DNA from: a virus
Length of the DNA stretch: 60,892 bases
Direction: 5' to 3' (one strand)
IMG/VR virus record: IMGVR_UViG_3300047160_014297
Span: 1-60,892 of that record
Numbering within the stretch: position 1 is the stretch's first letter; the number at the start of each line of letters is the position of its first letter. Under the pieces are notes generated by a model. It saw nothing but the letters and a program-made list of their open reading frames with translations. It was not told the origin of the DNA and searched no databases. This document shows, piece after piece, positions 4,387 to 44,843 of this stretch. The position numbers and the translations under genes were made by a program.

Positions 4387-6461
4387 CGAACCCGCCGTGC
4401 GCGGATCTGACCGTACGCTTTCAGGAAACTGATCGTGAAATTGCCCTGAGCCACCAAGTATGCCGTGAACGGTCCAGCCGTGTTGATACGCAAGATCGGA
4501 GTTGGTATAGCTGGATCGGTCAACCCACCAGGAACGACGGCCGGGGTCTCGATGATGGCGACTGAGTCCCGGCCGCCGATCACTGTCGATACTGTCGATA
4601 TCCCCACGATCAGAATGGTGTAGCTGGTTGATGGGTCAAAGTTGAAACTGGCAACACCGGACACGTCCCAATCGCCTGCCGTTAGAGAGATGCTGACCAC
4701 GTTGGCAGGGGTGCCGTTGGAAAGCGAGATGGCACTACCTAACGCGATCTGGGCCGAAACGTATTCGCCGACATCACCGGCTGCGGCGTTGCTGGCGTCA
4801 GTAATACCGGGGATTGAAGCGGTAAACCCGGTGGCTCCGAACGAGTTCATGAACTTGCGGATGTAGGGGCCGCTCGACGTGTTGCTGTAATCAGCCCCAG
4901 CGTTACCGTAACTGTGATTGTGGGCAACAAGGATCGTGCCGGTAGTGCCGGAAGTGCCAGTCAGGGCCAGACCGACCCAGTTGTTGTAGGTGATGTTGCC
5001 GGTGACAGTGCCGTGACTGGTAGTACCGGCCATCTCGATACCACTGGGGCCGGAACCCACAAGGGCTCCGACAACGGTGTTATTAGCAACAGTGAACCGT
5101 GTGGTGTTGGTGAGCAGAATCCCGTCACCGAGAGCCCCGGAGCCACGAGGCGTATCGACGAAGTTGTTCGTAATACGAATATCCGTGGACTGGCCGTCGG
5201 TAATACCCCGTGTTCCTGGACTATAGACCTGATTCGAGTCGATGGTGATTCCCGTAGAAAATCCACAAGCAATGCCTTGATTATTACCGTGATCCGATAT
5301 ATTGCCAATCACACTGACATTCGAAGACCCCGGCAGTATCTCGATAGATGCCACGCCCGGCGTGACCGAGTCGGCCGAATCATTGAAGCTGCGATTGTTG
5401 GATATTACAGATCTGGAAGCAAAGGATTCGATGCCGTCGATCGCGTTATGTTCGGTGTAATTGCCGTGAACCAGGATGTCCGTGGTGCCGGTGCCACAGA
5501 AGATACCGGACCAGCTCGCATGGGTGACCTTACAGTTGAGAATACTGATGTTGGCAGAGTCGTGGCCGGGGGAGATGCCGAACGTAGTGCTGCCTGCTCC
5601 AGTACCGGAATACGGCCCTTTCACGTACAGGTCACGGACAGTAACGCCGGTTGATGAGGGTGAAATAAAGACAACAGCGGAGGCCGAGCCGCCCCAATCT
5701 GGAGGGAATGGTAGATCAGATGGGGCGTGAATGGTGGAGTCCCAACCCGACCCGACCAGGGAAACACCCGATGGAACACGTAGGAAATTGGAGACTTTGT
5801 AGGTACCCGGTGGCATGTAGACGCGTGCACCTGTTACTGAGGCGTCGTTCAGGGCCGATTGGATCGCAAAGGTGTCGTCGGATGATCCGTCACCGTGGGC
5901 AAGGTACGGTACTGATCGGACATCCAGTTGGATCTGGGCTTCGTCGAATCCAGAAACAGCGGGTAGGGTGAAGGGTGATGTAATGCCAGTACCTGAGAAT
6001 TGAATATTGTACGCACCGTTGGGGGCGTAGAAGCCCCAGTTACCGAGGTTGTCCGCTGTAAAGGGGTTGGAGAGGGGAGTACCTTGATTGTCGGAATAGA
6101 TCTGGGCCAACGGTATACTGGAGGCCACGCCACCGGATGACGAGCCATTCGCGCCAGCCTGTGCCCAAACCAGTGAAGTGCCGGAGTAACTTCCTATAAC
6201 GAACGCACCGTTGAAGGAGGAGTCGGGGACGGCGGTAACGTTGACGGTCTGGCCGGTTGCGAACCCCAAACCGGACGGTACGGTTGCCGTTACGATACTG
6301 GATGATCGGGTAATTGCGGATATCGCTGCGGATATCGTGGTGGACGAGAACACAGTGACGGTGGCACCCGGAAAGGAACCTTGGACCAGAGTGGTAGATT
6401 GAAGTCCGGAGGTGTGGACTTTGGTGTTACCTTGCTGGGCGAAACCATAAATTCTCTGCAT
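4383..6461 (-). CDS. Tailspike or depolymerase with a pectate-lyase-3-type right-handed beta-helix
   Basis: The motif YLAHGDGSSDDTFAIQSALNDA...VYMPPGTYKV is a Pectate_lyase_3-type N-terminal signature. It is followed by many NxxxG-type beta-helix rungs. The gene sits at the terminal position of the late operon. Confidence 0.8.
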   Translation of the reverse strand: MQRIYGFAQQGNTKVHTSGLQSTTLVQGSFPGATVTVFSSTTISAAISAITRSSSIVTATVPSGLGFATGQTVNVTAVPDSSFNGAFVIGSYSGTSLVWAQAGANGSSSGGVASSIPLAQIYSDNQGTPLSNPFTADNLGNWGFYAPNGAYNIQFSGTGITSPFTLPAVSGFDEAQIQLDVRSVPYLAHGDGSSDDTFAIQSALNDASVTGARVYMPPGTYKVSNFLRVPSGVSLVGSGWDSTIHAPSDLPFPPDWGGSASAVVFISPSSTGVTVRDLYVKGPYSGTGAGSTTFGISPGHDSANISILNCKVTHASWSGIFCGTGTTDILVHGNYTEHNAIDGIESFASRSVISNNRSFNDSADSVTPGVASIEILPGSSNVSVIGNISDHGNNQGIACGFSTGITIDSNQVYSPGTRGITDGQSTDIRITNNFVDTPRGSGALGDGILLTNTTRFTVANNTVVGALVGSGPSGIEMAGTTSHGTVTGNITYNNWVGLALTGTSGTTGTILVAHNHSYGNAGADYSNTSSGPYIRKFMNSFGATGFTASIPGITDASNAAAGDVGEYVSAQIALGSAISLSNGTPANVVSISLTAGDWDVSGVASFNFDPSTSYTILIVGISTVSTVIGGRDSVAIIETPAVVPGGLTDPAIPTPILRINTAGPFTAYLVAQGNFTISFLKAYGQIRARRVR

Positions 6462-8056
6462 TACTTTGCCATCACAGTCCAGTTCGTACCGTCACAGTAA
6501 GCCAGGACATGATTGGTGCCCGAGCCGGTGATGACAGCGCCCCACGTATTGGTCATCGAATCGTTGACGGCACGCATGGACCCTTCGGTGCCGCCACCGC
6601 AACCGGGCAGGACTGAGAATGCTACCGCGGTCGACTGGACCATACCGTTAATGGAAAGGGTAGGGTTGGGACCTTGGTTGGCTCCGGTAAACATCGTGAT
6701 GCCGTCATTGGAACCATTGGCGGTAGGGGACAACTGCATGAATGCTTTGTCACCGGCAGCGACCGTGTTGCGGAGGACGCCGACTGTGGATTCCCAGTCG
6801 AGCCGGATTTTATTGGTGCCACTGGCAACGAGGTTCAACGTTGGTGTATTGACAAGAGTCGAGAACAGACCGTTGGTACCGTTGACCGTCGAGGTCGTCA
6901 AGTTGGCCGCGCCAGTTATCGATCCGAGATAGACGTCCGTAACTGAGACGTTGCCGATCACACAGGTATTTGAGGTGTGGGCCAGTGCCGATGTCCCTAA
7001 GATACAAGTGTTGGAAAGTTGGGTGGTTGAGTCCGCACCGGTACCAAACCCGACCCATGTATTGAATTGACCGGTCAGGTTGGCGTTAGCGGGTGTTGCC
7101 GTGATGCCAGAGTTCATGCCAACCAATGTGTTGAACGATGCCGTGGTGTTGAAGTAACCGGCACCAAACCCCAGGAATGTGTTGTCGTTGCCGGTGGTGT
7201 TGTTGTTACCGGCAGTTTGGCCGTCCGCTGTGTTTTGAGAGCCGGTGGAGTTCGTGACGAGACATTGGTCGCCGGTACAGGTGTTGTTATTGCCGGTCGT
7301 GGTCGAGACCAGAGCGGAGTGGCCGACACCGGTGTTGTTGGAACCGGACGTTAAGGTTCCGAGGGCAGCAGCACCGACCGCGGAGTTGTTGGAGGTGGAG
7401 TTGGCGTTCACGAGAGTGTGCCAGCCGATCGCGATGTTGTCGGTACCGTTGCCACCAGCTGAACCGAGGGTTTGAAGGGCCAGGGAGCCTAGTGCCGTGT
7501 TGCCGCCATTGTTGCCGATACCGTTACATGAGAAGTACCCGATACAGGTGTTCTCGGCCGAATTCACATTGTGCTGGAGGGCGTTGAAACCCATGGCGAC
7601 GTTGGCTAGGGACTGGTTCTGGGTCTGGGTGGACATGGCGCCGATACCAACAGCAGTGTCGGTGTTGTCGGATCGGATCAAGGCGGGGGCGACCCGGTCG
7701 GCCAGCGTGAAGGCGGATGGGATACCGGCTTGATCGAGCTGGACGTTGTAATGGGAGCCACCGGTGCCGTAGAAGAACCACTGGCCGGACGTGTTGGCGA
7801 AGAATGGGTTAGAGAGAGCAGTGCCTTGGTTGTCGGAGAAAACGGTCGCGACCGTGCCAGTACCGTAGTTGAAGACAGTGATGCGGCACGATGGGTAGGA
7901 AAGCTGGACACGGTTGGACGAACGGATGCCGGAGGTTATGGCTTGCTGGTTGCCGTTCTCACAGAACCCCGAGATTAGAGTGTAGATGGGAGTCTGGGAG
8001 TGAACCGTGGAAGTAAGAAGTAAAAGTGAGAATAAGGTTAAGAGTAATCGTTTCAT
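6461..8056 (-). CDS. Tail-fibre-like protein with a Sec-signal-like N-terminus and NT/NS-rich repeats
   Basis: N-terminus is MKRLLLTLFSLLLLTSTVHSQ. It shares the SDNQGT.LSNPF.A..G.W.FY module with the tailspike. The central region has repeats of the NTA.G..AL type. ATGA overlap with the downstream gene. Confidence 0.7.
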   Translation of the reverse strand: MKRLLLTLFSLLLLTSTVHSQTPIYTLISGFCENGNQQAITSGIRSSNRVQLSYPSCRITVFNYGTGTVATVFSDNQGTALSNPFFANTSGQWFFYGTGGSHYNVQLDQAGIPSAFTLADRVAPALIRSDNTDTAVGIGAMSTQTQNQSLANVAMGFNALQHNVNSAENTCIGYFSCNGIGNNGGNTALGSLALQTLGSAGGNGTDNIAIGWHTLVNANSTSNNSAVGAAALGTLTSGSNNTGVGHSALVSTTTGNNNTCTGDQCLVTNSTGSQNTADGQTAGNNNTTGNDNTFLGFGAGYFNTTASFNTLVGMNSGITATPANANLTGQFNTWVGFGTGADSTTQLSNTCILGTSALAHTSNTCVIGNVSVTDVYLGSITGAANLTTSTVNGTNGLFSTLVNTPTLNLVASGTNKIRLDWESTVGVLRNTVAAGDKAFMQLSPTANGSNDGITMFTGANQGPNPTLSINGMVQSTAVAFSVLPGCGGGTEGSMRAVNDSMTNTWGAVITGSGTNHVLAYCDGTNWTVMAK

Positions 8057-17015: not shown

Positions 17016-20000
17016 TCACTTGTGAAGGATGAAGATGGTGCCGCGGTGGGACGGCTGTGCCGGGGCCGGAGTGATGTCAAACAGGTTCGAGACCGCGTTA
17101 CTGGCACCCGAGGCCGACGCCGTGAAGTTGCAACCGCTACCGGAGGCCGATGTGCCGACCGTGGAGAACACCTTGACACCGGCCGTGGCCGAGCCGGACG
17201 TGTTGGTGAACCCCGCGCCGCAGCCGTTGGCGGTCAAGGTGACGGTGCCACTGAATGTGTTGTCGGAATCGGTGACCGTAAAGGATGCCATGGTCATGCC
17301 GCTGACGGTCGTGGCCGGTTGAACCGTGAACGAGAGGGCGGCACCAACATTGAATGTGTTGGAAGTAGTGTTGTCGGCACCCGAGGCGGACGCGACGAAG
17401 GTACAGTTGGAACCCGAGCCGGTCATGTTCATGATCGAGAAGGTCGCCACACCAGCCGTATTGGGTTGAGTGTTGTTGGTGGCACTGACGCCGGGACAGC
17501 TCGTGACGGTGAGCGTGGTATTGCCGGTGAAGGTAGCGTCGGGATAGGTGACCTTGACGGTCGCCATTGTTGAGCCCGAGCCGGTATTGGACGGTTGGAT
17601 CGTGAAGACCAAGGGACCGCATCCGCCAGCCAGACGCACCATTCCCTTCGGCACACATTGATCGGCCACGTGAATATGGGTTTCCCAACCTGCTGGCAAG
17701 TCGGATAATGGATACACTTCGCATGTGTTGGTGGGCGCGTCGGTGACTCCACCTCCATTACGGCAGGGAACCGAATTGGCTGTCGCCCATGTAAAGAACG
17801 GGTTGGCGATACCGGCAACCGAGTAGGCTTCATCGCCTTCACGCTCGACGATTTCAAAGCATGGCGTGCCACAGGTGTCGGAAAAATAAATGCCGTAATG
17901 AGCCAGTGCGGTGATAAACGGTTTTTTCCATGATGGAATCGATAGTGCTGCGATTTGGGCGTCCGTATAGTCCAGGAAGAAAAGTTGCCCCTGGAACGGC
18001 CGATTCGTATTCGACACCATAACCGATGTGCATCCCAGAATACTGACCCGAGGTGATGGGAATACGTAGGAATTTGAGCCTAACGAATCGTTCACACAAT
18101 AACTATTTGTGATCAGAGCGTGCTGAATACTCCCAGCAACCACTTCGTGATGGCGTAGATCGGTTGACGCGAGTCGACTGTCAATACTGTAACCGTTGGG
18201 CTGGCCGTAATCGGGGGTGGAGAAAGCGCCAGGACTGCGGATGGTGGCAATCGCTGTGTCCAGAAATTGCAGGTCCAACGTGCAGCAGTTGGACATGTTG
18301 AAGTAACGTTTGTTGTAAAACGTGATGCCCTGCTCGTTGTTACCATGGAGACGGATATATTCGTTGTTGGTCTGGTCCCACAAATCAAAGAACGAGTCGC
18401 CGCCACAGCCGGGGTTCGTACAGGAAGTCAGGTAACTGAAGTGGGCACCGACCGGGATATGTGCGGTGAACCCGTTATGCATATCGCTGCCACAAGTGGT
18501 CCCAACCGCTTGGCAGTTGGTGAACGTCCACACCGGATCGGACGACTGACCGTAGAAGGTCGGGTTGGAGTTGTTGGCAGAGTTCGAATTGGGGTTATTG
18601 ACGTTCGGATTCGCCGTCGATGCCGACCCGACACTCTCCTTGAACACCTGAGACTGCCCGACCTCGCCCGTCAGTAAGGTCACCATTGCCGCCGAGTTCG
18701 CGATCAAGTGCCCCGTTGGACCGCCAGAACCGGCACCAGGAAGTTGAGTCGTGTAGAGGCCCCCGGGATAGGGCATGCAGGTGGATGGCTCCTGAGACGA
18801 GATCGTGAACGGGCCTGCACATGGATTTTGGACGGTCAGCGGATGCGGATAGGTGTAGGGGGTGTAACTCAGCGTCCAGGTGTTTGTGGAGGTGCACAGG
18901 TACAGATTGCCATTGCCGAATCCATTACCGCTCGTATTCCAGCTTCCTTCATCGGTGGCAAAATAACCAACGCCTGTAGTACATGCCGCAGGACGTCGGG
19001 CCTTTGTTCCGAAGCCATTTCCAGATGTTCCGTCGAATGGAGAACTCGAAGTCGTCTGCGCTGACTGTCCTAGCGTATCTACATAAAAATCTCTGTTCGC
19101 AATGATCCGCTTAGAACTTGCCTGTAGATAATAATAGATAGGACTGCCGCCGATGACAGCATTGTTCCAAGCGTAACTCGGTGAAGCAGCCTGAGCGGAT
19201 GAAGAGAGTGGGGTGGCGCTGTTACCGCCATTCGCCCCGGTATAGAGAAAGCCAGCACCACGGCCCATGCCTTGATCGACACATGCGCTTGCCCGTAATA
19301 TCTGGATCGAGTCTCCGTTGACTGGTGTCCAATCTCCCGGCCCTCCGCTTCCCACGTTTATGACAAGCGTATTCGCGGTGTTCGATATAATTTCCGTCCC
19401 GTCATTCAACGTCACATCATGCATGGAGTATGGCGCACCAGCCGGTATCCATTGGTTTGTTGTCCAGCCTGGACTTCCGGTAACCGTTACAGTCACCGCT
19501 GGATAGACTCCGGTGACTGTGCTGATTGTCCCGGAGTAATAAGTCACACCATCATTGGTGTCATATACGCTAGCACCGTCACACGCACCCCATCCGCCGA
19601 TGCTGGCATTGGTTCGTGGCGTGGTCACGCTAAAGAGTCCGTCTATGTTTGCGCCTGACGCGGATATATCGGCAGTGTTCCCAAACATCAGACCAGTACC
19701 ACTTCTACCACCGAGCAATCCTCCAGCAGACTCGGTGCTAGCCGCTACGGTAAACGTGTTGCCGTACTGCTCAAAAGCTCTCGCCCCGCGGGGGCGGCCA
19801 TTGGATTCTGTCCCGTGCCAGGCAAGGGCAGAATTCAAATGATCCATATTCGTGAACTTATTAAACCTCTGAACGATCCTGCCGCCGCCTTCTTCGGTTT
19901 GCTGACCGCTGACGCTGCCTTCATTGTCACAACAACCGGCTGCATTGAATGTATTGTTTTCAAAGAAGATGAAGTTAGCTGAGCCGTAATTTTCAGACTG

Positions 20001-20648
20001 TGCCCAGCTATTATCACCCCACTGTCCCACACCCAAATAACTGGAATGAGAAAACTCAATCAGCGCCAGATACGTGCATCCTGTGCCCGCGATGTTGTTG
20101 TGATCGAAAACCCCGAACATGTTGTCGATCACGCCGATCCCATAAGAAATATATGAAGTGGTGTGGCCGCACCAATTAGAGAATGTAATGTTGTCCATCC
20201 TCATGTTGGGGCATCCGCTAGATGTGCAAGTCCCCCAAAAGGAAAATCCTACCGAGGCACCGCTTCCGTAGGTGAGTGTCAAGCACGATAGGCGCGAGGT
20301 CGAATTACCATATTGAGGCCGCATATCAAAGGCGAGAATGCCAGTAATTGTCAGCGTCGTACCACCGCTACTACAAGAGGATGCTGGCAGGAAAGTACTC
20401 GTGCTGCTACTTGCCGTACCAGCGCCTTGAATTGTAATTCCAATATTTGAAGGGACGGTAATACCTGATGAATTCCATGTGCATGAACCTGCGGGAATTA
20501 TGATAACGTCCCCGTCCACTGCTGTGTGCGTCGGGCCGTTAATCACAGCATTGACGTCACTTTGATTACATGAAGCCGCTGTATAGGTTCCGGCAAAGAG
20601 GGACGTCGGCGCGAGGACGAGAATAGTGAAAATCAATCGGCGGATCAA
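17016..20648 (-). CDS. Secreted-type beta-helix polysaccharide-degrading-like protein with two C-terminal Ig-like repeats
   Basis: TTG start overlaps the upstream TGA. The N-terminus MIRRLIFTILVLAPTSLFAG is signal-peptide-like. The motif AASCNQSDVNAVINGP...DGDVIIIPAGSCTW is typical of secreted parallel beta-helix enzymes. There is a tandem repeat of about 90 aa at the C-terminus. Confidence 0.75.
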   Translation of the reverse strand: MIRRLIFTILVLAPTSLFAGTYTAASCNQSDVNAVINGPTHTAVDGDVIIIPAGSCTWNSSGITVPSNIGITIQGAGTASSSTSTFLPASSCSSGGTTLTITGILAFDMRPQYGNSTSRLSCLTLTYGSGASVGFSFWGTCTSSGCPNMRMDNITFSNWCGHTTSYISYGIGVIDNMFGVFDHNNIAGTGCTYLALIEFSHSSYLGVGQWGDNSWAQSENYGSANFIFFENNTFNAAGCCDNEGSVSGQQTEEGGGRIVQRFNKFTNMDHLNSALAWHGTESNGRPRGARAFEQYGNTFTVAASTESAGGLLGGRSGTGLMFGNTADISASGANIDGLFSVTTPRTNASIGGWGACDGASVYDTNDGVTYYSGTISTVTGVYPAVTVTVTGSPGWTTNQWIPAGAPYSMHDVTLNDGTEIISNTANTLVINVGSGGPGDWTPVNGDSIQILRASACVDQGMGRGAGFLYTGANGGNSATPLSSSAQAASPSYAWNNAVIGGSPIYYYLQASSKRIIANRDFYVDTLGQSAQTTSSSPFDGTSGNGFGTKARRPAACTTGVGYFATDEGSWNTSGNGFGNGNLYLCTSTNTWTLSYTPYTYPHPLTVQNPCAGPFTISSQEPSTCMPYPGGLYTTQLPGAGSGGPTGHLIANSAAMVTLLTGEVGQSQVFKESVGSASTANPNVNNPNSNSANNSNPTFYGQSSDPVWTFTNCQAVGTTCGSDMHNGFTAHIPVGAHFSYLTSCTNPGCGGDSFFDLWDQTNNEYIRLHGNNEQGITFYNKRYFNMSNCCTLDLQFLDTAIATIRSPGAFSTPDYGQPNGYSIDSRLASTDLRHHEVVAGSIQHALITNSYCVNDSLGSNSYVFPSPRVSILGCTSVMVSNTNRPFQGQLFFLDYTDAQIAALSIPSWKKPFITALAHYGIYFSDTCGTPCFEIVEREGDEAYSVAGIANPFFTWATANSVPCRNGGGVTDAPTNTCEVYPLSDLPAGWETHIHVADQCVPKGMVRLAGGCGPLVFTIQPSNTGSGSTMATVKVTYPDATFTGNTTLTVTSCPGVSATNNTQPNTAGVATFSIMNMTGSGSNCTFVASASGADNTTSNTFNVGAALSFTVQPATTVSGMTMASFTVTDSDNTFSGTVTLTANGCGAGFTNTSGSATAGVKVFSTVGTSASGSGCNFTASASGASNAVSNLFDITPAPAQPSHRGTIFILHK

Positions 20649-21346
20649 AACACACCCCCGCCTATCACAACGGCCTTATTGCTACTAGTTGCTGCCGCGA
20701 GAATGTGAAATCCATCTAGGATTGTAAAAGTGTTGCTTCCTGTCCATGAATGCGTGTTACTTGATCCTCCCAATGCATAACTTGCTGCCGCCAATCCACT
20801 CAGGTTATATAACTCCGTTTGACTCGTGGTCACCAAGCCAGCACCAGGGTTCATAATAAAAGCAACAGTCGCGTCTCCCACTGCCGAAGTCACCGCAAGG
20901 CTATATGGACTCGTTGATGGACCCGCCGAGCTATCATCGGCGGCCTTGCGGCACGTCACTTGATCCGTACCCGTAAAACTCACCAGACCCATAATTGGGG
21001 AATCTGCGTTCGTCCATGATGCCGAAATGGTTAGTGACGTACCCGCCGTTGGGGCGACGAGCAAAAATGTATCGATTCTTGTAGTGGCTCCGCCAAAACT
21101 AAATATCGATGTCATGGCCTGATTGGTTCCGGTGCTGTCCCAATGTATCGACGGAGAAGTCAGAGTGTTAAAGCCATGTAAGGTAACCAGCAGGCAACGA
21201 TTCGATCCTGAAATTGTCATTGTGGTCGTACAACTAGTGACCGAAGAACCACAATTGACACTGGTGGTGTGATCCAATGCCACAGCCGCCCACACCCCAA
21301 CTGGCCAGAGTCCGCACAGGAGAAGAACGAAAAGTGCGCGTCGCAT
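20645..21346 (-). CDS. Hypothetical protein with an N-terminal signal peptide
   Basis: Start is taken at ATG 21346, which overlaps the upstream stop as TAATG. N-terminus is MRRALFVLLLCGLWPVGVWAAVA. The protein is Ser/Thr-rich. Confidence 0.65.
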   Translation of the reverse strand: MRRALFVLLLCGLWPVGVWAAVALDHTTSVNCGSSVTSCTTTMTISGSNRCLLVTLHGFNTLTSPSIHWDSTGTNQAMTSIFSFGGATTRIDTFLLVAPTAGTSLTISASWTNADSPIMGLVSFTGTDQVTCRKAADDSSAGPSTSPYSLAVTSAVGDATVAFIMNPGAGLVTTSQTELYNLSGLAAASYALGGSSNTHSWTGSNTFTILDGFHILAAATSSNKAVVIGGGVF

Positions 21347-21858
21347 TAGAATTGATCCGCCCCACCGACAATCCGTAACTGGACTCCGGCTGACGTCTGG
21401 ACACAGAGATTGTCGGCATTGGTTGCTGTTTGAAACCATGATCCATTCCCGTAAGTTGGCCCGAGCACGTACCCGTGGATTGCCGTCGCGGAGGTACCAT
21501 CCAGAAGGTACGCCGGGGATATTGCCGTAAATGTCGTGACACAGTTGGTGCCGGTCCCGGTCCCGAACGTAACGGTGACACTCGATGCGCTGTCGTTGGA
21601 GAACTCGATGAACCGGACGTAGATTTTGGTAGCAGAGACACCCGCGATCAAGGTGGTCTTGCCGTTGGTGTTGGTGTCGTAGAGGATGTGGAGAGTGCCG
21701 CCGCGATCGGTGGCGGACATGACAGTGTCGGCATTGGCCGCGGTTTTGTTGGAGTTGGGCGGGACGTTGTTCTTGCCGATCGTGACAACAGCGGACTGAC
21801 CGAAGAGTAACGGTGCCAGTAGAAGTTCGAAGAGAACGAGTGTAAATGCTCGCTTCAT
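21346..21858 (-). CDS. Hypothetical protein with an N-terminal signal peptide
   Basis: Start is taken at ATG 21858 (GGTGAGGAA upstream). N-terminus is MKRAFTLVLFELLLAPLLFGQSA. Confidence 0.65.
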   Translation of the reverse strand: MKRAFTLVLFELLLAPLLFGQSAVVTIGKNNVPPNSNKTAANADTVMSATDRGGTLHILYDTNTNGKTTLIAGVSATKIYVRFIEFSNDSASSVTVTFGTGTGTNCVTTFTAISPAYLLDGTSATAIHGYVLGPTYGNGSWFQTATNADNLCVQTSAGVQLRIVGGADQF

Positions 21859-21868
21859 TGAGTGTTCC

Positions 21869-22459
21869 TCACCGGAGATAGACCGTGCCGTAGACCCATA
21901 AGACGTCACCGTTGGCAATCGTGCCGATGGTGATCAAGAGTTTGTCGGAGGCACCACCGTCGATGATACCGGAAGATAGTTCTCGGTAAAAGGTTCGAGA
22001 CATACCGAACGATGGTGAAGAGAAAGCTAGTTGAGAGCCCGAGGTGGGTGTGGTCGTGGGGTTGGCACCAACAAATACTGAGGGATTGTCAGGTGTTAAC
22101 GAGCTGGTGATCTGAGACTCGATACCAAGAGCGGTTAAGCGCCACGCCGCGCCGGGCGTGATCAGCACACCGTTACTTGTGGTTGCGACGTATTGTTGGC
22201 CGAACCCGATAGGGGCCGCCCCGCCAACGACGCTTACCGGTAACGGGTTGGTGGATTGAATGAGGTTGCCGGACGCATCGTAGAGTTGGAATGGGGCACA
22301 AATTAACGGTGAGCCGTACCCGACCAGTTTCTCGGCAGACGAGGTGCCGACGTCCCACTTAATGGCCTGTCGGGCCTTGCCGTCCCCGATATCGACACAC
22401 CGGACGCTCTTACCGAGGGGTGCTATTGGAGTATTGAGTATGACATCATCATCAGCCAT
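21869..22459 (-). CDS. Hypothetical virion protein
   Basis: 196-aa ORF that overlaps the upstream gene by 8 nt. Confidence 0.7.
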   Translation of the reverse strand: MADDDVILNTPIAPLGKSVRCVDIGDGKARQAIKWDVGTSSAEKLVGYGSPLICAPFQLYDASGNLIQSTNPLPVSVVGGAAPIGFGQQYVATTSNGVLITPGAAWRLTALGIESQITSSLTPDNPSVFVGANPTTTPTSGSQLAFSSPSFGMSRTFYRELSSGIIDGGASDKLLITIGTIANGDVLWVYGTVYLR

Positions 22460-34474: not shown

Positions 34475-34700
34475 CGGTAATCTCACGAAACGAGAATGCA
34501 GGTTTAATATACGCGTCGAAGTACTGTTTGGGCTGTACGGCAGAGTACAGAGTCGACCAGACACGAGAGGGGACGGGTTCACGGGAAACGTAGCGGCGGC
34601 CGTTGACGAACTCCAACGTTAGCGTGCCGGACAGTGGGTCGTAGCGGCCGGACTGGAGGTTGGAGGACTGGAATACCTTGAAGTTGGGATCGCTACTCAT
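34461..34700 (-). CDS. KTSC-domain protein
   Basis: L.SGRYDPLSGTLTLEFVNGRRYVSREPVPSRVWSTLYSAVQPKQYFDAYIK fits the KTSC pattern. Confidence 0.55.
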   Translation of the reverse strand: MSSDPNFKVFQSSNLQSGRYDPLSGTLTLEFVNGRRYVSREPVPSRVWSTLYSAVQPKQYFDAYIKPAFSFREITDANS

Positions 34701-36897
34701 CGATTGTGCCCATGCGCTCCTGTTGGGATGGAGTATACTTTAAATAGGTCCGCGGTACAGCTTGTTTCTTACCCTCCCGTTTCAATTGAGCTTGGTACTG
34801 GTCGGTAGGTTTCATAGCGGCTTGAGGGCGGTTGGGTTCCCACTGGTACAACGAGATGATAATGAACCCGAGAGCCATGATCCGGTCGTCGTGACCTCCG
34901 TACGCGGTTTTGAAGGATTGAGACACAGAGTCACTTTCAAGGGATTGCATTTCGGAAACGAGAAACGGCGAGCAGAGTTCAATCTCCAAGTCACGTAACA
35001 TTTTGGTCAAGTACTCTTGAATGGACTGGCGAAACCATTCGTTGGTGAAGACACCGATTTTATTGTATTGGCTTATATCTAATTTTTTGTTGTCGGGACG
35101 TATCCAGGGGTGGAAGTTGGTCCAGCCGTCCATACGCATACCTAACTGAGTGAGGTCGCCTTTGCCTTTACATTCGATGGCGGTACGGCATTGTTTGCGG
35201 AAGGCGTCGGTGGATCTTCCAAACGGATCTCCAGTATTGACAGAATACAGGGCAGACAACGCCATGGCGTAGGGTATGAGGTCCAACGCATTAAGTCTGT
35301 CGGACGCAAATTCAGCACATTGTCCTGCGACTTGCCAAGGAGAACCTTTCCTAAGTACCTCAAGCACGCTACGATCTTTGCCAATTCCATCACTGGTATC
35401 GCCTCCGACTCCGTAGATCTGGCCGGGTTCGGGCCACTCGTAGATGTAGATTTTGTCGAGTCCATCGTCGGTACTGTATCCGTTCCATTTTAGAGGGACG
35501 AGTTGGTAGGTTCGGGGGTTCTGGCCCCATTCGTAATCGACGGTGACGATGTCTTTGGTGGTGTCGATTTGACTGGGTCCAAAGAGAATAGTACGGCTGG
35601 GCATATCTTCGCAGACCAGACCATACACTCCTTTAGGGACACGGGATTTGGCGTGATCACGGTGGACAACGATCGTCTCCGTCTTAAATATGCTGATATT
35701 CGTGGATTGGAACGCTTCGTCGTCCGAACTGGGCATTTCCTGGAAGAATTTGTTCAACCGGTTTTCGTTTTGGGCTTGCTGGCGTTCGACTTCGTAGAAC
35801 CAGATTTGTTCGATCGGCATCGTCCAGTTCGAACCCATGTACTTACGGAGCAGGTCGTTGGATTGGACGTACGCTTCGGCGGCGCGGGCGTGCTGTTCGG
35901 CCCAAGGGACTGGGGTGTAGTCGGAGGGGACAGGGGAGCGATCGAGAAAGCCTTTTTCGGGGTAGACGTAGCCAAGTTTGGCCGACCCGACGAACCAGGG
36001 AAGGAAAACGGGGCGTAGACGGGAACGACGGTTGGGCCAACCCGACTTACTGGTTAACCACTTTTTGTGCCACCAGTTGTTCATTCCAAGGGCGGTAGAT
36101 TCAAGCACCATAAAGACTCGGGCGTCCGGATGGACCGCTCGAAACAGGGATGAGTCAATAAGCTCCTCAGGACCAAGTCCTGAGTACTCGAATTCGCACA
36201 GTTCGGATAAATGAATAACAGTTGGTGTGGTACCTCGGGCAATTCCTGAGACCTGTGATCCAGCCTGCAACGTGACAGAAGATCCAGTATCGAACTCGAA
36301 CCACTCTCCTCCGGACTTCTTGGCGGCGTCACGCGGACCTCCTGTGAAATTAGGCATCAGCCAGTGGGGCTGGAACGAGATTGTGAATTCCATCATGTCG
36401 GCCAACTTACCCGTTTTATCCGGAGTAGACGAACCCATGATGGCGTTGATATGACCGTGGAAGAGTAGCCGGTGGAGTTGACGGAGGGAGATTTCGCGAC
36501 TGACACCAAGTTGGCGTGCCTTGAGCGATTGGAGTTCGATACCGATCCCTTCTAATTCGTTCTCCGCACAGATGTCACCAATGATGACTTGAGAGACCCA
36601 TGGTACGTAACGAACAGGGCGGTCCGTGCGGTCTTTGATCCAGGCGTAACGGGTGGCCCAGTAGGTGTAGTCGTACCGGCAAACGAACCGTTCGTTGTCG
36701 ATGAATTCGATTTCGGCGGGGGACAACTGGCGGGTCCAGTTACCGGTTTCATCGTCGTAGAGTTCTTTGAAATGGGTGACCATGCGTTCAGACTCGGGGC
36801 GGGTATGGTAGACCGGGAGTTTGATGGGACGGGGGGATTTCCGCGATCGTTCGACGACGCGTTCGATGTTGCGGGTAACTACGGCCGAAGCGTACAT
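34693..36897 (-). CDS. terL: Terminase large subunit
   Basis: 734 aa. LKARQLGVSREISL is a Walker-A-like terminase motif. An ATPase half is followed by a nuclease half. The gene lies upstream of the portal gene. Confidence 0.85.
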   Translation of the reverse strand: MYASAVVTRNIERVVERSRKSPRPIKLPVYHTRPESERMVTHFKELYDDETGNWTRQLSPAEIEFIDNERFVCRYDYTYWATRYAWIKDRTDRPVRYVPWVSQVIIGDICAENELEGIGIELQSLKARQLGVSREISLRQLHRLLFHGHINAIMGSSTPDKTGKLADMMEFTISFQPHWLMPNFTGGPRDAAKKSGGEWFEFDTGSSVTLQAGSQVSGIARGTTPTVIHLSELCEFEYSGLGPEELIDSSLFRAVHPDARVFMVLESTALGMNNWWHKKWLTSKSGWPNRRSRLRPVFLPWFVGSAKLGYVYPEKGFLDRSPVPSDYTPVPWAEQHARAAEAYVQSNDLLRKYMGSNWTMPIEQIWFYEVERQQAQNENRLNKFFQEMPSSDDEAFQSTNISIFKTETIVVHRDHAKSRVPKGVYGLVCEDMPSRTILFGPSQIDTTKDIVTVDYEWGQNPRTYQLVPLKWNGYSTDDGLDKIYIYEWPEPGQIYGVGGDTSDGIGKDRSVLEVLRKGSPWQVAGQCAEFASDRLNALDLIPYAMALSALYSVNTGDPFGRSTDAFRKQCRTAIECKGKGDLTQLGMRMDGWTNFHPWIRPDNKKLDISQYNKIGVFTNEWFRQSIQEYLTKMLRDLEIELCSPFLVSEMQSLESDSVSQSFKTAYGGHDDRIMALGFIIISLYQWEPNRPQAAMKPTDQYQAQLKREGKKQAVPRTYLKYTPSQQERMGTIDE

Positions 36898-39423: not shown

Positions 39424-39636
39424 CTAATTCCTTTCAATAGACGTACAGTAGGTTGTCTCGCACATCAAACACTTCACGTGCAGGTGTTGCGAGTGATCCT
39501 TTTTCTGTGTCATCACGAAGACGGAGAACGATGTGACTTGACCACAGTCGGGACAGGCGATCAGATCGCAGTCCTTCTTGTCGTAATCGACAGTTGAAAC
39601 TTTCTTGAGTTTGATCGGACTTTCTGTTGATGGCAT
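39424..39636 (-). CDS. Zinc-ribbon protein
   Basis: Two cysteine pairs are present: CPDCG...CLMC. Confidence 0.6.
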   Translation of the reverse strand: MPSTESPIKLKKVSTVDYDKKDCDLIACPDCGQVTSFSVFVMTQKKDHSQHLHVKCLMCETTYCTSIERN

Positions 39637-39639
39637 AAA

Positions 39640-40707
39640 CTACTCCTCTGGTTCTACCGGTTCATACACTGCCTTGTGGGGGTCGGGTACCTCGACGACC
39701 CTGTTACGTATCCAATCCGGTAACATGTCTTCGGTTACGAAAATGATCGACTTGTCGGCAAGGTACCGCTGGTGCTCTTTTAATTCGCGAGTAAGTCCGG
39801 CCGCCTCTAACTCTTCCATTAGTTTGTAACGGACTTGCTCGAAGTGTTCGGGCAGGAGTTCGAAGGCCCGTTTCAAGCAACCAACCGCCTCGGCGTGGCG
39901 GTTCAAGGCGGATAGAGATTGTCCCTTACAGAGCCACGACAGACCGTCATCCGGTAAAATACCGACCGCACGGTTCGACGAACGGACCGAATGCTGGAAC
40001 TCACCCAGGCAGAATTGGACGGTGGCGAGGTTGCGCCAACCGTCACATTCGGCGGGCCAACGTCTCGTTACTTCAAGTAGGATATCCCTCGCTTCGGCCA
40101 GTTTATCGGGGTCGGCGACCTGACCCGAACCGACCTTGGCCGCCGCTAAGTTAATAAGCAGGGTGCGACAATCACTGAAACCCGTTTTAAGAGTAGAGTA
40201 GATACGCTCCACTTCCAAGTGTTGGCCCATCTGGTTCAGTTGGTAGAAGTAGTTCGACATCACCCCAGGGTCGGGTGAGTCTGTAGTAGCCTTACGCCAG
40301 AAACGTTCCGAATTCGTGAAGAGTCCATTTCTGTAGAGAGTGCGGCAGGCAAAGAAAATCACCGTAGGTAGTAATACGTAGAGCGAGTGGGTCTGGCCCA
40401 AGTACGTGATCAGTAAGGCCATGCCAGCCGTCGCGAGGTAAGCACGATACTCTAGAACGATCTGCGGTACCGGACACCACGAATAAACGACGACCGGCGT
40501 TACTGTTAAGATTAATGCGAACCGGACAAGTGGGGATAACCAGGGCACTACCAGGAAACCGGCCAGTAAAGCAAGGAAAATCCACGTGATGAAAAGTTCC
40601 GGTTCCGTAGACTCTACGTCTGGAACGATCAAGTGCTGATGGATTCCCAGTAATGGACCACATACGTAATACCCTATCAACTGCGCGAGCTTGTGTTTAA
40701 ACGTCAT
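39640..40707 (-). CDS. C-terminal half of a TMTC/PMT-like GT-C glycosyltransferase: transmembrane helices plus a TPR domain
   Basis: Start is taken at ATG 40707 (MTFKHKL...), which overlaps the TAA of 40707..41438 (TAATG). It has 5-6 hydrophobic helices followed by TPR-like repeats. The track extension up to 41076 has no membrane character. Confidence 0.6.
   Translation of the reverse strand: MTFKHKLAQLIGYYVCGPLLGIHQHLIVPDVESTEPELFITWIFLALLAGFLVVPWLSPLVRFALILTVTPVVVYSWCPVPQIVLEYRAYLATAGMALLITYLGQTHSLYVLLPTVIFFACRTLYRNGLFTNSERFWRKATTDSPDPGVMSNYFYQLNQMGQHLEVERIYSTLKTGFSDCRTLLINLAAAKVGSGQVADPDKLAEARDILLEVTRRWPAECDGWRNLATVQFCLGEFQHSVRSSNRAVGILPDDGLSWLCKGQSLSALNRHAEAVGCLKRAFELLPEHFEQVRYKLMEELEAAGLTRELKEHQRYLADKSIIFVTEDMLPDWIRNRVVEVPDPHKAVYEPVEPEE
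40606..40618. repeat. Palindrome copy CGTAGACTCTACG (inside 39640..40707, read as VEST)
   Basis: Read directly. Confidence 0.95.
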
Positions 40708-41438
40708 TACGGTTTGAGCCACAGCGCCCCCACGATTACCGGTAGTAGAACGATCGCTTCTTCTTTCGAGAGTGCGGCCAGTACCGTGAACAGTACCGCG
40801 GACACGTACCGATGGTCGAGTACGGTTGCCACCACGCACAGTACGTACATACCACACAAGAGCGATGACCGCCCTGAAATATACGACACAGCCATGGTTG
40901 AGAGTGGATGTAACCCGAAGATTAACGTTCCTAAGAACGCCGGTAACGGGTCGAACCAGTGCCGTAGAATATGGTAGAAAACCCATACCGATACAAGGTG
41001 GATTGTGATGGAAGTGCGGTGCCAGCCGACCGGCGATATCCCGTAAAGGGACGCATCCATATTGTAGGTCAACCACGTTAACGGCCGCATCTTCACGAAC
41101 TCCTTCAACGAGTGACTACGGAACCATTGACCAAACCGTTGGAAAGGACTGGGGTACCCCTGTTTCAGGTATTGGTGGGGTTCGGCGGCCCATACCGCCA
41201 GATCATCGAACAGGAACGGGCCGTGCTCGACTCGCCGGTAAATAAGGTAGACGATCGTCACAGCGAGTAGTTCGTAAACGATGTCAGTTTTCAGTAGAAA
41301 CAACAGTGCCTCCATAACTACCCATAACCCGACCGTACAAACCAGCAGCCATTCGAGATAGATAAGCAAACGGATAACGTACAGGTGCCGGAAACTGCGA
41401 CCAGAATCGATCGGACCTTGCTGCAAGTTCACACTCAT
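40707..41438 (-). CDS. N-terminal (catalytic-loop) half of a TMTC/PMT-like GT-C glycosyltransferase
   Basis: PFLFDD, RPLTWLTYNMD..LYG..P.GWH....IH and HPLSTMAVSYISGRSSLL match the TMTC-type pattern as I remember it (F.FDD; SYRPL; FH..N..H; HPIHTEAV..GR..LL). The protein is multi-pass membrane. Confidence 0.6.
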   Translation of the reverse strand: MSVNLQQGPIDSGRSFRHLYVIRLLIYLEWLLVCTVGLWVVMEALLFLLKTDIVYELLAVTIVYLIYRRVEHGPFLFDDLAVWAAEPHQYLKQGYPSPFQRFGQWFRSHSLKEFVKMRPLTWLTYNMDASLYGISPVGWHRTSITIHLVSVWVFYHILRHWFDPLPAFLGTLIFGLHPLSTMAVSYISGRSSLLCGMYVLCVVATVLDHRYVSAVLFTVLAALSKEEAIVLLPVIVGALWLKP

Positions 41439-42228
41439 AACTGCGCCTCGCGAAAGTGGGGTTCTGCCCGATCAACGGTATCGATGTTCTGACGTCTTTC
41501 AGTAGGTAGGCGACCTGCTCAAAATGTTTCGGTAAGTTGCGGCCCAGCGTCTGGCCGAGTCCCAGCGGGTTGTACCGGTACACCGCCAGTTCGAACGGAA
41601 TATACCCAATCATACAGTGCGCCGCCAAGTCCAGCCAAGTCCACCAATCGGAATACTCGCGCAACTTGGGGTCACAGTTGAATTTCATGTACCCGGCCCG
41701 TGTCATGACGGTGCCGCCCGGTATGAAATTCTCCCGCAACAGGTCGTAGACGAGCGAGCCAGACGCGGCATGGTTGTAATGTGACCGGTGCTGCCACCGT
41801 ATACCGGTCTGGTCGGTAATGTAGGAATCACTGTAACAGGCACCGAATATCCGGTTGGTTTCCAGGTACCGTAGTTGGCGTTCCAGTTTCTCCGGTAACC
41901 ACAAATCGTCGTCGCACAACCACGACCAGTAGTCGCCGGTCGAGCGGTGCAGGGCTCTATCCAGCGAGACTGCAGGGTTACCCGAGTGGTCCATGAAGTA
42001 GGTGCGGATTCGTTTGTCGGTGTAGGCGAAATGCAAGACCTCTTTCATGGTGTCGTCGGTCGAGCCGTCATCCAAAACAAGTAATTCCCAGTTCGGCCAT
42101 GTCTGGAGTTGGACCGACCGGATCGCGTCGATCACCAACTTCGGTCTGTTGTAGGTCGTCAAGAATACGGTTACTTTAAGATTCTTGTCCAACACGGGCG
42201 CGAGCCTCCCGACGGTGAGCTTGGTCAT
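41284..42228 (-). CDS. Family 2 glycosyltransferase (GT-A fold)
   Basis: VTVFLTTYNRPKLVIDAIRSVQLQTWPNWELLVLDDGSTDDT is followed by a CDDD (DxD) motif. Start could be ATG 42228 or GTG 42195. The 3' end overlaps the next gene by up to 155 nt. Confidence 0.8.
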   Translation of the reverse strand: MTKLTVGRLAPVLDKNLKVTVFLTTYNRPKLVIDAIRSVQLQTWPNWELLVLDDGSTDDTMKEVLHFAYTDKRIRTYFMDHSGNPAVSLDRALHRSTGDYWSWLCDDDLWLPEKLERQLRYLETNRIFGACYSDSYITDQTGIRWQHRSHYNHAASGSLVYDLLRENFIPGGTVMTRAGYMKFNCDPKLREYSDWWTWLDLAAHCMIGYIPFELAVYRYNPLGLGQTLGRNLPKHFEQVAYLLKDVRTSIPLIGQNPTFARRSYECELAARSDRFWSQFPAPVRYPFAYLSRMAAGLYGRVMGSYGGTVVSTEN

Positions 42229-42559
42229 TTCGTTTTTGGCGGTACGCTTCGTATTCCAGTCGCGCGTCACGCCGGTCCCGCCACCAGTCGGCAGACAACT
42301 CGGCATGCCGTATCTTCAAATGTAGCGGGCATCGCAACTTACCATCGGACGGTTTGCCACAATCCACACAAGAATGTCGGCGAGTCCCTGGTCGTTTGAA
42401 CTGGATGCCCGCCGACCGTAACGAGTACCGTACCGACGAGTAGGAACATTTCACTCGTCTTCCGCGGAGTAACCGGACAATTTTAGAGATGGAGAAACCA
42501 GCAAGGTAGAGTTCGATTGCTTGCTGGCGGGATTGTCCGGTTACGATAGGCGTGGCCAC
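42176..42559 (-). CDS. HTH DNA-binding protein; first gene of the minus-strand arm after the divergent promoter
   Basis: SRQQAIELYLAGFSISKIVRLL is an HTH. A Cys cluster CVDCG...CPLH is also present. GTG 42559 has AGGAGA 12 nt upstream. The track start at 42688 would run through the promoter region. Confidence 0.55.
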   Translation of the reverse strand: MATPIVTGQSRQQAIELYLAGFSISKIVRLLRGRRVKCSYSSVRYSLRSAGIQFKRPGTRRHSCVDCGKPSDGKLRCPLHLKIRHAELSADWWRDRRDARLEYEAYRQKRNDQAHRREARARVGQES

Positions 42560-42590
42560 GCGATTACAATTTCTCCTGGATTGAAATCGA

Positions 42591-42619
42591 TTGAAATCAT
42601 CCGAACAATACTTTAGAAT
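42591..42619 (+). promoter_or_regulatory. Sigma70-like promoter TTGAAA-17 nt-TAGAAT, 8 nt upstream of ATG 42628
   Basis: Read directly. The -35 box is the second copy of a ttgaaatcga tandem duplication. Confidence 0.5.
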
Positions 42620-42634
42620 AGTTTTCCATGTCAA
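42605..42634 (-). promoter_or_regulatory. Divergent sigma70-like promoter TTGACA-18 nt-TATTGT for the HTH/glycosyltransferase/late arm
   Basis: Reverse complement of 42629-42634 is TTGACA and of 42605-42610 is TATTGT. It overlaps the plus-strand promoter. Confidence 0.45.
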
Positions 42635-43239
42635 AACATTTCTGGTACATGGCTCTGATGTGGTTATCGCTGTCGGACCCGTCGGCACTGAAAATGGCCA
42701 AGACCTTATGGGGACAGGTTGCCATGATCGGCCAGCGGCGCGATATGACGCAATCGAACTGGACGAAACTGGTGGGGTACATCAGTCCAGGATGTGTGAA
42801 CGATTTCACCGTCGTTGGTAGTGGGTTCAATACCTGGGACGCTGCGTTCGCCGACGCCCAGTTACACCCGGTGATGGCGGACGGACCCTACCGCGGCCAC
42901 ATTACAGTGACGATCAACGTCGCCGACCCGGTCTCGATATCCACAGTCCAAACCACCATCGATACCAATCCACCATTGACGGTGGCTACGTTTCCGCCGA
43001 ACCCCCCGACGGTCCAAACCGCCATTAAATGGGACTTCGACACCTCATTATTGGTAGACGGTACGCATGTATTGTGCGCCCAGGTGGCGAACTCGGCGAA
43101 TCTCGTAGGGAGGACGTACTCGGGCTATCTATTTTCCACCAATCAGTCCACCGGTCGGGATGGCGGATCGATCGGACTACCGTCGATGGTGCCACCGGAT
43201 ATCGAACTCCCCCCTCAACCGATCGTCCAGAAGTGGTAG
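42628..43239 (+). CDS. Hypothetical protein (beta-rich or Ig-like C-terminal part)
   Basis: ATG lies 8 nt downstream of a TTGAAA-17-TAGAAT promoter, so the mRNA may be leaderless. The ORF ends at TAG 43237-43239, in frame with the next ORF. Confidence 0.55.
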   Translation: MSKHFWYMALMWLSLSDPSALKMAKTLWGQVAMIGQRRDMTQSNWTKLVGYISPGCVNDFTVVGSGFNTWDAAFADAQLHPVMADGPYRGHITVTINVADPVSISTVQTTIDTNPPLTVATFPPNPPTVQTAIKWDFDTSLLVDGTHVLCAQVANSANLVGRTYSGYLFSTNQSTGRDGGSIGLPSMVPPDIELPPQPIVQKW

Positions 43240-43928: not shown

Positions 43929-44207
43929 CTACGGTTTGGTTTCGACGGTACCGGACGGGGTCTGAACCAACGGCTTGGTCTCCGGCTTGGTCTCCGTCCT
44001 GGTGTCGCTCACCACATCCTGTTTAATCAACGCCAGCAACGCGCCGAGCGTCATGGCGGCCTGCGTCTGTGCCCATATAATAAACGTCATGTCGTCGCCG
44101 CCCGCATCCGACTTATGGATCAAATGGACACATAAGAGGACGGTCGCGACGAACAGGCCGGAAAGTAAGAGTTTATCGAAGTGTTTCGACCCCATCAGGG
44201 ACTTCAT
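43929..44207 (-). CDS. Holin-like membrane protein (two transmembrane segments)
   Basis: LLLSGLFVATVLLCVHLI and AAMTLGALLALI are followed by a charged tail. The gene overlaps the endolysin 3' end. Confidence 0.5.
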   Translation of the reverse strand: MKSLMGSKHFDKLLLSGLFVATVLLCVHLIHKSDAGGDDMTFIIWAQTQAAMTLGALLALIKQDVVSDTRTETKPETKPLVQTPSGTVETKP

Positions 44208-44637
44208 TGTTGTGGCTCCCCCCGGTACGCATCATCACCGATAACCGTTCGGCCCTCGCTCCGACTTGAGAGGCCCAGGTCGAATCTAACATCTCCGTTG
44301 CAGCGAGGTCGTAATTTCCGGATTCCGCGGCTGCCAGCATATTGTGGAACCCCATCAACCGGGACACGCCCATATTGAAGCACATGTTCGCCAAAACCTG
44401 CTGCCTCACACCTGACATATCAGTCCACCAAGGTATCGAGCGGTCCAGGTCCGACTGTACTTGCTGAATATCGTTATCGAGTAAGTACATGGCCTCGTCG
44501 TTCGATAGACCTACGTCGGTAAGGTTGCGGCCGACACCTACTGTAACCTTGCCTACAGTGTCGATGTAGGGTTTCAACTTCAAACCCTCGTCGACTATCA
44601 ATTGAGACTTTAGGGATTCTGTATCTTGTGTGTTCAT
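44173..44637 (-). CDS. Endolysin, T4-type lysozyme (GH24)
   Basis: IVDEGLKLKPYIDTVGKVTVGVGRNL carries the Glu/Asp/Thr catalytic pattern of T4 lysozyme. ANMCFNMG is also present. Confidence 0.85.
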   Translation of the reverse strand: MNTQDTESLKSQLIVDEGLKLKPYIDTVGKVTVGVGRNLTDVGLSNDEAMYLLDNDIQQVQSDLDRSIPWWTDMSGVRQQVLANMCFNMGVSRLMGFHNMLAAAESGNYDLAATEMLDSTWASQVGARAERLSVMMRTGGSHNNEVPDGVETLR

Positions 44638-44645
44638 ACCGTGGA

Positions 44646-44674
44646 ATTGTCAGTTATTAAAGGCAAAATGTCAA
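44646..44674 (-). promoter_or_regulatory. Sigma70-like promoter TTGACA-17 nt-GACAAT, 8 nt upstream of the endolysin ATG
   Basis: Reverse complement of 44669-44674 is TTGACA and of 44646-44651 is GACAAT. It lies in an AT-rich stretch. Confidence 0.45.
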
Positions 44675-44767
44675 ATTTTCAATAAAAGTTGAAGATAAAT
44701 TAAAAATTATGAACGTACTTACAAGGTAAGGCCACGGTGTAAACGGACAAGCCCCTGGACAATGGTG

Positions 44768-44805
44768 ACTATAGCGGTAACTACTATAGTGGTAATCACT
44801 ATAGT
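44768..44805. repeat. About 2.5 tandem copies of a 15-bp unit, ACTATAG(C/T)GGTAA(C/T)N, giving three ACTATAG(T) boxes exactly 15 bp apart
   Basis: gACTATAGcggtaact ACTATAGTggtaatc ACTATAGTacg. ACTATAGT is itself a palindrome. Confidence 0.85.
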
Positions 44806-44843
44806 ACGCACACGAGGCACCGTCAAAAGGTAGGCTCGCTACT

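Follow-up and report, generated by a model that had tools for sequence, protein, structure and literature searches.

Glycosyltransferases of the GT-C type are already known from phage, in the Gtr systems, and cellular proteins that combine a GT-C membrane part with tetratricopeptide repeats (TPRs) are likewise known. The eukaryotic protein O-mannosyltransferases TMTC1-4, which have the GT-C fold, share a common order, in which 11 membrane helices come first and lumenal TPRs come after them, and their motifs have been described as M1 DD, M2 SHKSYRP, M3 RxD, M4 KE(T/Q)xxT, M5 DW and M7 ERxxY, M7 being phosphate-binding (Eisenhaber et al., PMC7801869). Fused proteins of about 600 amino acids (aa) with transmembrane (TM) helices and TPRs occur in Acidobacteriota and Planctomycetota, and the PMT/GT39 family (yeast Pmt1/2/4 and actinobacterial Pmt) has a GT-C core as well. 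Phage Gtr systems comprise the flippase GtrA, the family-2 glycosyltransferase (GT2) GtrB and a GtrC-type GT-C enzyme, and three-component glycosylation systems related to them have been reported (PMC11127046). In the literature we found no account of phage GT-C enzymes carrying TPRs or of bacterial TMTC-like proteins, nor of the function of the bacterial TM+TPR relatives of TMTC. Here we describe a pair of adjacent minus-strand genes in IMG/VR record IMGVR_UViG_3300047160_014297 (positions 1 to 60,892, hereafter the window), which is the complete genome of a soil phage, 60,892 bp long and bounded by direct terminal repeats. Their identity as the two subunits, A and B, of a TMTC-like, TPR-bearing GT-C enzyme is well supported.

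The open reading frame (ORF) of subunit A spans 40707-41438, with its likely start at M42 (position 41315), the same start as in database call P0012. An AlphaFold2 (AF2) model made from an alignment reaches a pLDDT of 90.2, and when it was compared with 48161 representative chains by VIA, the 20 best structural matches were all GT-C-fold proteins, nearly all of them glycosyltransferases, with Z-scores of 12.3-7.1 over 157-195 aligned residues. These are ALG6 (Z 12.3), ALG3, PIG-U, Pmt4 (11.2), STT3 (11.2), Pmt1/2 (11.1), AglB, PIG-M, PglB (9.7), DPY19, ArnT (9.3), AftD, AftA, ALG12, AftB, ALG9, PimE and EmbA/B; below them come unrelated helical designs with Z < 6.7. As we read the model and the sequence, the subunit holds helices TM1-6, and F-L-F-D-D stands directly after TM1, with D37 and D38 in the first periplasmic loop. 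An alignment of 35 sequences shows no change at D37, P137 and R149 and very little at R77, H99, G148 and K184, and D38 is conserved in at least 90%, the motifs reading R77-P, H136-P, G148-R149 and K184-E-E. Both the helix arrangement and the acidic loop-1 residues of GT-C enzymes are present, and a GT-C fold with TMTC/PMT-like motifs, as proposed by an earlier sequence-only reading of the window, is thus borne out.

Subunit B has five predicted helices (TM7-11) and then a TPR domain, which the same reading had also claimed and which TPR_2 matches at residues 258-289 (E 3e-6). In an alignment of six sequences D30, E37 and E86-Y-R-x-Y90 are invariant. The Atlas model of the subunit resembles fused bacterial TM+TPR proteins (TM 0.80), and the Atlas feature search places it near the TMTC2 and CG4050 clusters (score 0.95). 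A 478-aa ORF reaching 41076 was rejected as an out-of-frame artefact upstream of the real start.

Compared with the TMTC motifs as described, not by direct alignment to TMTC sequences, the conserved residues of subunit A appear to correspond to M1 (DD), M2 (RP), M3 (R) and M4 (KE), and the counterpart of M7 lies in subunit B; DD, RP, GR, KEE and E-Y-R-x-Y are conserved, while SHKSY and DW are unrecognised. The apparent likeness to TMTC1-4 extends to where these motifs stand: DD in loop 1, then RP, an R (loop 2), KE (loop 3) and, ahead of TM10, E-R-Y. Unlike TMTC1-4, however, the enzyme consists of two polypeptides (6 + 5 helices), so that the 11 TM helices and TPRs expected of a single TMTC chain are divided between them; it is phage-borne, has only 2-4 recognisable TPRs, and its DUF1736 loop (TM7-TM8) has shrunk to about 15 residues. 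With PMT/GT39 it shares the GT-C core (Z 11.1-11.2) and an acidic pair in loop 1, but its extra-membrane domain is a TPR domain and not MIR: no MIR domain and no match to PF02366 was found in it, and PF13231 (PMT_2) stayed below threshold. The direct homologues are the bacterial fused TM+TPR proteins, at 28-37% identity (E down to 3e-18) and with the same motif order, although these are single polypeptides with a longer middle region, encoded on large cellular contigs. On the two phage pieces Pfam and PHROGs detect nothing besides the TPR, NCBIfam gives a weak AZOBR_p60025 match only, and neither phmmer nor the 35-sequence profile retrieved a membrane enzyme from the PDB sequences.

The two membrane ORFs align colinearly to fused relatives, which bears out the suggestion of the sequence-only reading that they belong to a single enzyme. 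A word-indexed search, which covered proteins longer than the query, returned relatives some 600 aa long that have TPRs at the C-terminal end and bear the annotation TPR protein or protein O-mannosyltransferase; residues 14-164 of one such relative are matched by the N piece, and the C piece aligns colinearly to residues 340-600 of fused homologue P0001. The cut falls, according to the predicted topology, in the cytoplasmic TM6-TM7 loop. At the junction the TAA of subunit A and the ATG of subunit B share one base, so that the genes overlap by 1 nt, an arrangement that points to translational coupling.

The same division was seen in 10 of the loci examined, alongside about 40 fused cellular forms, and it recurs in at least 9 loci besides the window. 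One could suppose that the two ORFs are a single gene expressed through programmed -1 frameshifting, a gene that has been disrupted, or a fault of the assembly, given that cellular relatives are single proteins and that the second ORF lies in the -1 frame at 10 of 11 junctions. However, the remaining locus has it in the +1 frame and one locus has three pieces, no slippery heptamer of the form X XXY YYZ occurs in the last 150 nt of the first ORF in any of the 11 loci (the window and 10 others), and across the 11 junctions the second ORF starts at an ATG or GTG of its own, usually with GGAGG 6-9 nt ahead of it. Moreover, the split comes at the same place in proteins that share only 30-45% identity, and in a quick maximum-likelihood tree (IQ-TREE) of 35 short and 47 fused forms, a branch with SH-aLRT 100 separates 32 of the 35 short forms from the fused forms; the three short sequences found among the fused forms (P0072, P0100 and P0133) may be fragments. 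With regard to assembly, contigs built from four soil runs are short; one of them (X3, 40459-40731) includes the junction and shows no differences, but reaches only 24 nt past it, which is below the bridging criterion. We regard frameshifting, breakage or misassembly as highly improbable; the split is genuine and old, and marks a hitherto undescribed clade on phage and phage-like contigs.

Structure prediction of the two pieces as a complex, which the sequence-only reading had called for, gave a passing result. The model of A with B scores 0.83, against 0.00 for the best control, and of 80 solved complexes 58 attain this mark, as do 2 of 110 mismatched pairs. Contacts agree between runs to at least 97%, the partner pLDDT is at least 77, and at the modelled interface the H-P loop region of piece A meets the E-Y-R-x-Y region of piece B. 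Because the pieces are halves of a known fold, this pass may reflect their likeness to solved GT-C enzymes.

Relatives of subunit A are very numerous, an exhaustive HMMER search returning 19102 cluster representatives at E <= 0.001. The nearest clusters, about 30, are of 184-240 aa and stop where the query stops, and the fused forms of 500-750 aa rank after them. Cellular relatives that matched the search pattern belong to Acidobacteriota and Planctomycetota, a sampling limited by that pattern and one that assigns no host. A search of IMG/VR with the single protein found no relative, and a 9-row alignment search found one contig only, that of a related phage (L002) in which the enzyme is split too; its terminase is 72% identical to that of the window, and the two pieces are 44% and 32% identical. 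The split pair is also present, with terminase-sized genes downstream, in phage contigs of 42.7 kb (L015, which has a faint portal-family match) and 68.7 kb (L093), and further in a 66-kb contig (L084) and several short contigs. The window, L002, L015 and L093 all have it at the promoter-proximal end of the operon with the terminase gene; in L084 it sits at a divergent junction, and no terminase was identified in the stretch fetched. G001 has the pair and the complete relatives G002 and G003 do not, and in L007 an XRE-type helix-turn-helix (HTH) gene occupies its spot. The pair is thus an accessory element that keeps its place. Two variants of the arrangement were noticed in passing. In a distant member (L085, 251-1691) the enzyme is apparently encoded by three genes (184, 51 and 246 aa) with successive overlaps of 4-7 nt. 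L093 encodes, on the minus strand of the locus and in the other arm (2146-3768), a single TM+TPR protein of 540 aa, which by BLASTP has 40% identity to subunit A across 135 residues, and therefore split and fused forms can occur together in one phage.

The gene directly upstream of the pair encodes a GT2, and its identity, also proposed from sequence, is firmly established: PF00535 matches with 83.2 bits against a cut-off of 23.3, the fold matches SpsA, and the DxD motif is present, the motifs being DDGSTDD and CDDD with D107 and D108 invariant in 31 sequences. The gene may alternatively start at GTG 42195, behind GGGAGG. The sequence-only reading saw in the neighbouring GT2 and GT-C the logic of Gtr, in which the GT2 would load undecaprenyl phosphate, the lipid would be flipped and the GT-C would transfer the sugar in the periplasm. 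The likeness is real in that Gtr, too, is a phage-encoded extracytoplasmic GT-C beside a GT2 gene; the two genes in the window are adjacent, overlap and belong to one operon, one cellular locus has a GT2 immediately upstream of the gene for a fused relative, and PHROG gives a weak GtrB-like match (E 0.0018, N-terminal half only). The GT2 itself, however, does not look like a lipid-sugar synthase. Its best NCBIfam profile is TuaG (2.6e-30), followed by EpsE, PglI and WcaA, with no match to the PpgS, AglJ, ArnC or dolichyl-phosphate hexose transferase models, and its only match to a polyprenyl-phosphate sugar synthase model, PgfS, is weak (2e-5) and confined to the N-terminal half. The nearest solved relatives of its AF2 model (pLDDT 81.8), by sequence and fold, are SpsA (best, E 1.7e-18), chondroitin polymerase (K4CP), CgT, TarP and RmlT (the last two about 1e-14), and no GtrB, DPMS or ArnC appears in the top 50 of the fold search. 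We found in it no transmembrane or hydrophobic segment and no membrane or interface helices.

The cellular locus mentioned above, a Bryobacteraceae genome (L087), serves here as a positive control. Its GT2, directly upstream of the fused relative, does match PpgS (2.5e-23), AglJ, dolichyl-phosphate hexose transferase and ArnC, and has no resemblance to the phage GT2. A lipid-sugar synthase can therefore stand next to a cellular member of the family, which fits a lipid-linked donor, while the phage GT2 is of another kind, the SpsA/TuaG/TarP type. Further differences from Gtr lie in the locus as a whole. The complete genome has no GtrA at PF04138 E <= 1, a search in which 13 of 14 control genomes match; there is neither a polyprenyl-phosphate GT2 with C-terminal helices nor an integrase; the GT-C is split and bears a TPR domain; and no GT2 stands next to the split pair in the other loci examined, nor was one found elsewhere in genome G001. 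We thus consider a Gtr-like coupling of the two enzymes unlikely, and the claim that the GT2 makes the lipid donor for the GT-C is not supported.

Instead, the GT2 would be a lineage-specific addition that probably acts on its own acceptor in the cytoplasm and does not supply the GT-C. TarP, a wall teichoic acid GT2 encoded by a Staphylococcus aureus prophage, is a precedent for cytoplasmic modification of a host surface polymer by a phage GT2, and soluble enzymes of the TarP/RmlT/SpsA type are those whose folds the phage GT2 model fits best, although identity is only 16-23%. The phage protein has in addition a C-terminal helical region of about 100 aa, which the nearest database homologues, aligned over about 65% of the GT2, do not cover. 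Among 50,697 deposited phage records only distant GT2 genes were found.

We favour, as more probable than not, a two-subunit TMTC-like GT-C that uses a host lipid-linked sugar on a periplasmic envelope target, with the GT2 working separately. Subunit A (TM1-6) would contribute the catalytic loop-1 Asp-Asp and most of the donor-binding motifs, and subunit B (TM7-11) the arginine motif and a TPR domain predicted, by analogy with TMTC, to face the periplasm. The two would assemble in the host inner membrane into one enzyme, draw sugar from a host polyprenyl-phosphate sugar and, in the periplasm, attach it to an acceptor that the TPRs select. The conservation of phosphate-binding-type motifs (K184-E in subunit A, R88 in subunit B) bears on such a donor indirectly. 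In TMTC and TMEM260 the TPRs select folded domains, and by analogy the acceptor is probably a protein, most likely one of the host envelope. The cell surface may thereby be altered during infection, for example by masking the receptor against superinfecting phage or against the loss of progeny on infected cells and debris.

Several points weigh against this account. Foldseek finds nothing for subunit A in the PDB at E <= 0.001, and the GT-C pieces reach no threshold of a curated Pfam GT-C family: with 19 bits PMT_2 stays below its cut-off of 26.1, and TMTC_DUF1736 (PF08409) matches neither piece by hmmscan, nor the genome in a six-frame search, at E <= 1. The profile checks that the sequence-only reading had proposed are divided, Glycos_transf_2 (PF00535) and TPR_2 matching their genes as expected and PMT_2 and TMTC/DUF1736 falling short. 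The predicted orientation of the TPR domain comes from our own counting of helices and from the TMTC analogy, not from a computed topology, and an inner membrane and a periplasm are themselves assumed for the host. We infer the activity, the donor and the acceptor, and receptor masking likewise, for a genome that looks lytic; surface-masking roles are less common in lytic than in temperate phages.

The pair might otherwise glycosylate not host proteins but the phage's own exported Ser/Thr-rich proteins. Four minus-strand proteins (6461-8056, 17016-20648, 20645-21439 and 21346-21918) have signal-peptide-like N-termini and 23-27% Ser+Thr, and the N-terminal domain of the first is shared, at 42-48% identity, with G001, which bears the GT-C. 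Yet the same domain is weakly matched in G003, which is without the GT-C, the other such proteins have no homologues in any relative searched, and the signal peptides were judged by eye only. Across the relatives searched, the distribution of secreted-like proteins does not track the GT-C cleanly, and we think it improbable, somewhat more so than the Gtr-like coupling, that these proteins are the targets; a host envelope acceptor remains the preferred reading. As observations in their own right, the four proteins are encoded in the structural arm, such N-termini and Ser+Thr contents are unusual for virion proteins, one example, M-K-R-L-L-L-T-L-F-S-L-L-L-L-T-S-T-V-H-S, has a Sec-like look, and the first 100 residues of the 531-aa protein at 6461-8056 recur twice in G001.

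The fuller statement, that phage and phage-like contigs of public metagenomes encode a split TMTC-like protein O-glycosyltransferase acting periplasmically in lytic infection, whether on the host envelope or on the phage's own Ser/Thr-rich proteins, we put forward only tentatively and hold to be doubtful as it stands. If true, it would be the first phage-directed periplasmic protein glycosylation system and the first GT-C enzyme with an active site built from two polypeptides. Given how numerous the bacterial TM+TPR relatives of animal TMTC are, a compact two-gene phage version would offer a small and tractable entry to the donor and acceptor of the family. The GT-C core appears to tolerate a cut in the predicted cytoplasmic TM6-TM7 loop, which would be useful for structural and engineering work. 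The pair, carried by an integrase-free genome and found at the same promoter-proximal place in four related phages and at a divergent junction in a fifth long contig, is also a candidate for a new class of host-surface-remodelling accessory genes in phage.

Table 1. Features of the glycosyltransferase locus, with positions in the window
Feature	Position	Strand	Basis
GT-C subunit B, 355 aa	39640..40707	-	TPR_2; colinear with fused homologue
TAATG junction (subunit A stop and subunit B start)	40705..40709	-	Read from sequence
GT-C subunit A, 202 aa	40707..41315	-	AF2 model, structural matches, conserved motifs
Soluble GT-A-fold family-2 glycosyltransferase	41284..42228	-	314 aa; PF00535 2.7e-23
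Small HTH + zinc-ribbon protein (putative)	42176..42559	-	127 aa from GTG 42559; weak HTH matches
Promoter-like pair, face-to-face, overlapping divergent	42591..42634	.	Consensus scan, 10/12 matches each

The four minus-strand genes of the locus are present at about the coordinates first claimed for them, and together they do head an operon running into the terminase gene (Table 1). As for the divergent promoter pair from which they were said to depart, two promoter-like sites stand at that place, one on the minus strand (TTGACA, 18 nt, TATTGT) and one on the plus strand (TTGAAA, 17 nt, TAGAAT); these are matches to a consensus pattern only and may not fit the promoter type of the host. The first gene after them is an ORF open to 42688 (42176-42688), whose GTG at 42559 lies downstream of the promoter-like site. 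That the gene exists agrees with the sequence-only reading, whereas its assignment as an HTH protein is weakly supported, by matches to the Terminase_5 HTH (E 0.0054) and to IS6/Cbp1 HTH models (E 0.002-0.014). A CxxC...CxxH zinc-ribbon motif follows the HTH in the translation, and we regard the product as a putative DNA-binding regulator. Small HTH genes are often found beside the split pair in the window and related loci. In the closest relative, L002, the HTH/zinc-ribbon homologue lies on the strand opposite to the GT-C pair (items at 2928-3659 and 4039-4470, minus strand of the locus), and therefore the regulator is not a fixed part of the module. A gene near that homologue looks by eye like an S-adenosylmethionine-dependent methyltransferase. 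Directly downstream of subunit B in the window, a 70-aa minus-strand ORF (39424-39636) has two CxxC pairs, zinc-ribbon-like, and no homologue in the related loci.

The phage genome is organised in two arms diverging from about 42.6 kb, and near-identical sequence is present in many soil metagenomes. Along the minus strand the glycosyltransferase module leads to the large terminase (34693-36897) and on to a pectate-lyase-like tailspike (4383-6461). The latter was seen to carry a pectate-lyase/beta-helix domain and an endosialidase-type N-terminal extension, and because of these domains a surface polysaccharide is suggested as receptor. No tyrosine or serine recombinase occurs in the complete genome, in agreement with the earlier remark that an integrase is lacking. 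The large terminase has no relative among 185,579 species genomes and therefore gives no prophage or host lead, and blastn and tblastn against the 50,697 deposited phage records matched neither the region nor subunit A. The plus-strand arm holds replication genes, namely those for a UvrD-like helicase, a ParB_N protein, a DEAD helicase and ERCC4 and, across the terminal repeat, a UDG-exonuclease and DNA polymerase A. These last are two adjacent plus-strand genes, one for a UDG-family domain fused to a 3'-5' exonuclease (506-2014) and one for the polymerase domain (2017-3501). Inside the plus-strand arm lies a minus-strand islet (43929-44637) with a gene that by eye is lysozyme-like and an overlapping gene for a small protein with two hydrophobic helices, and this islet has promoter-like sites of its own at 44646-44826.

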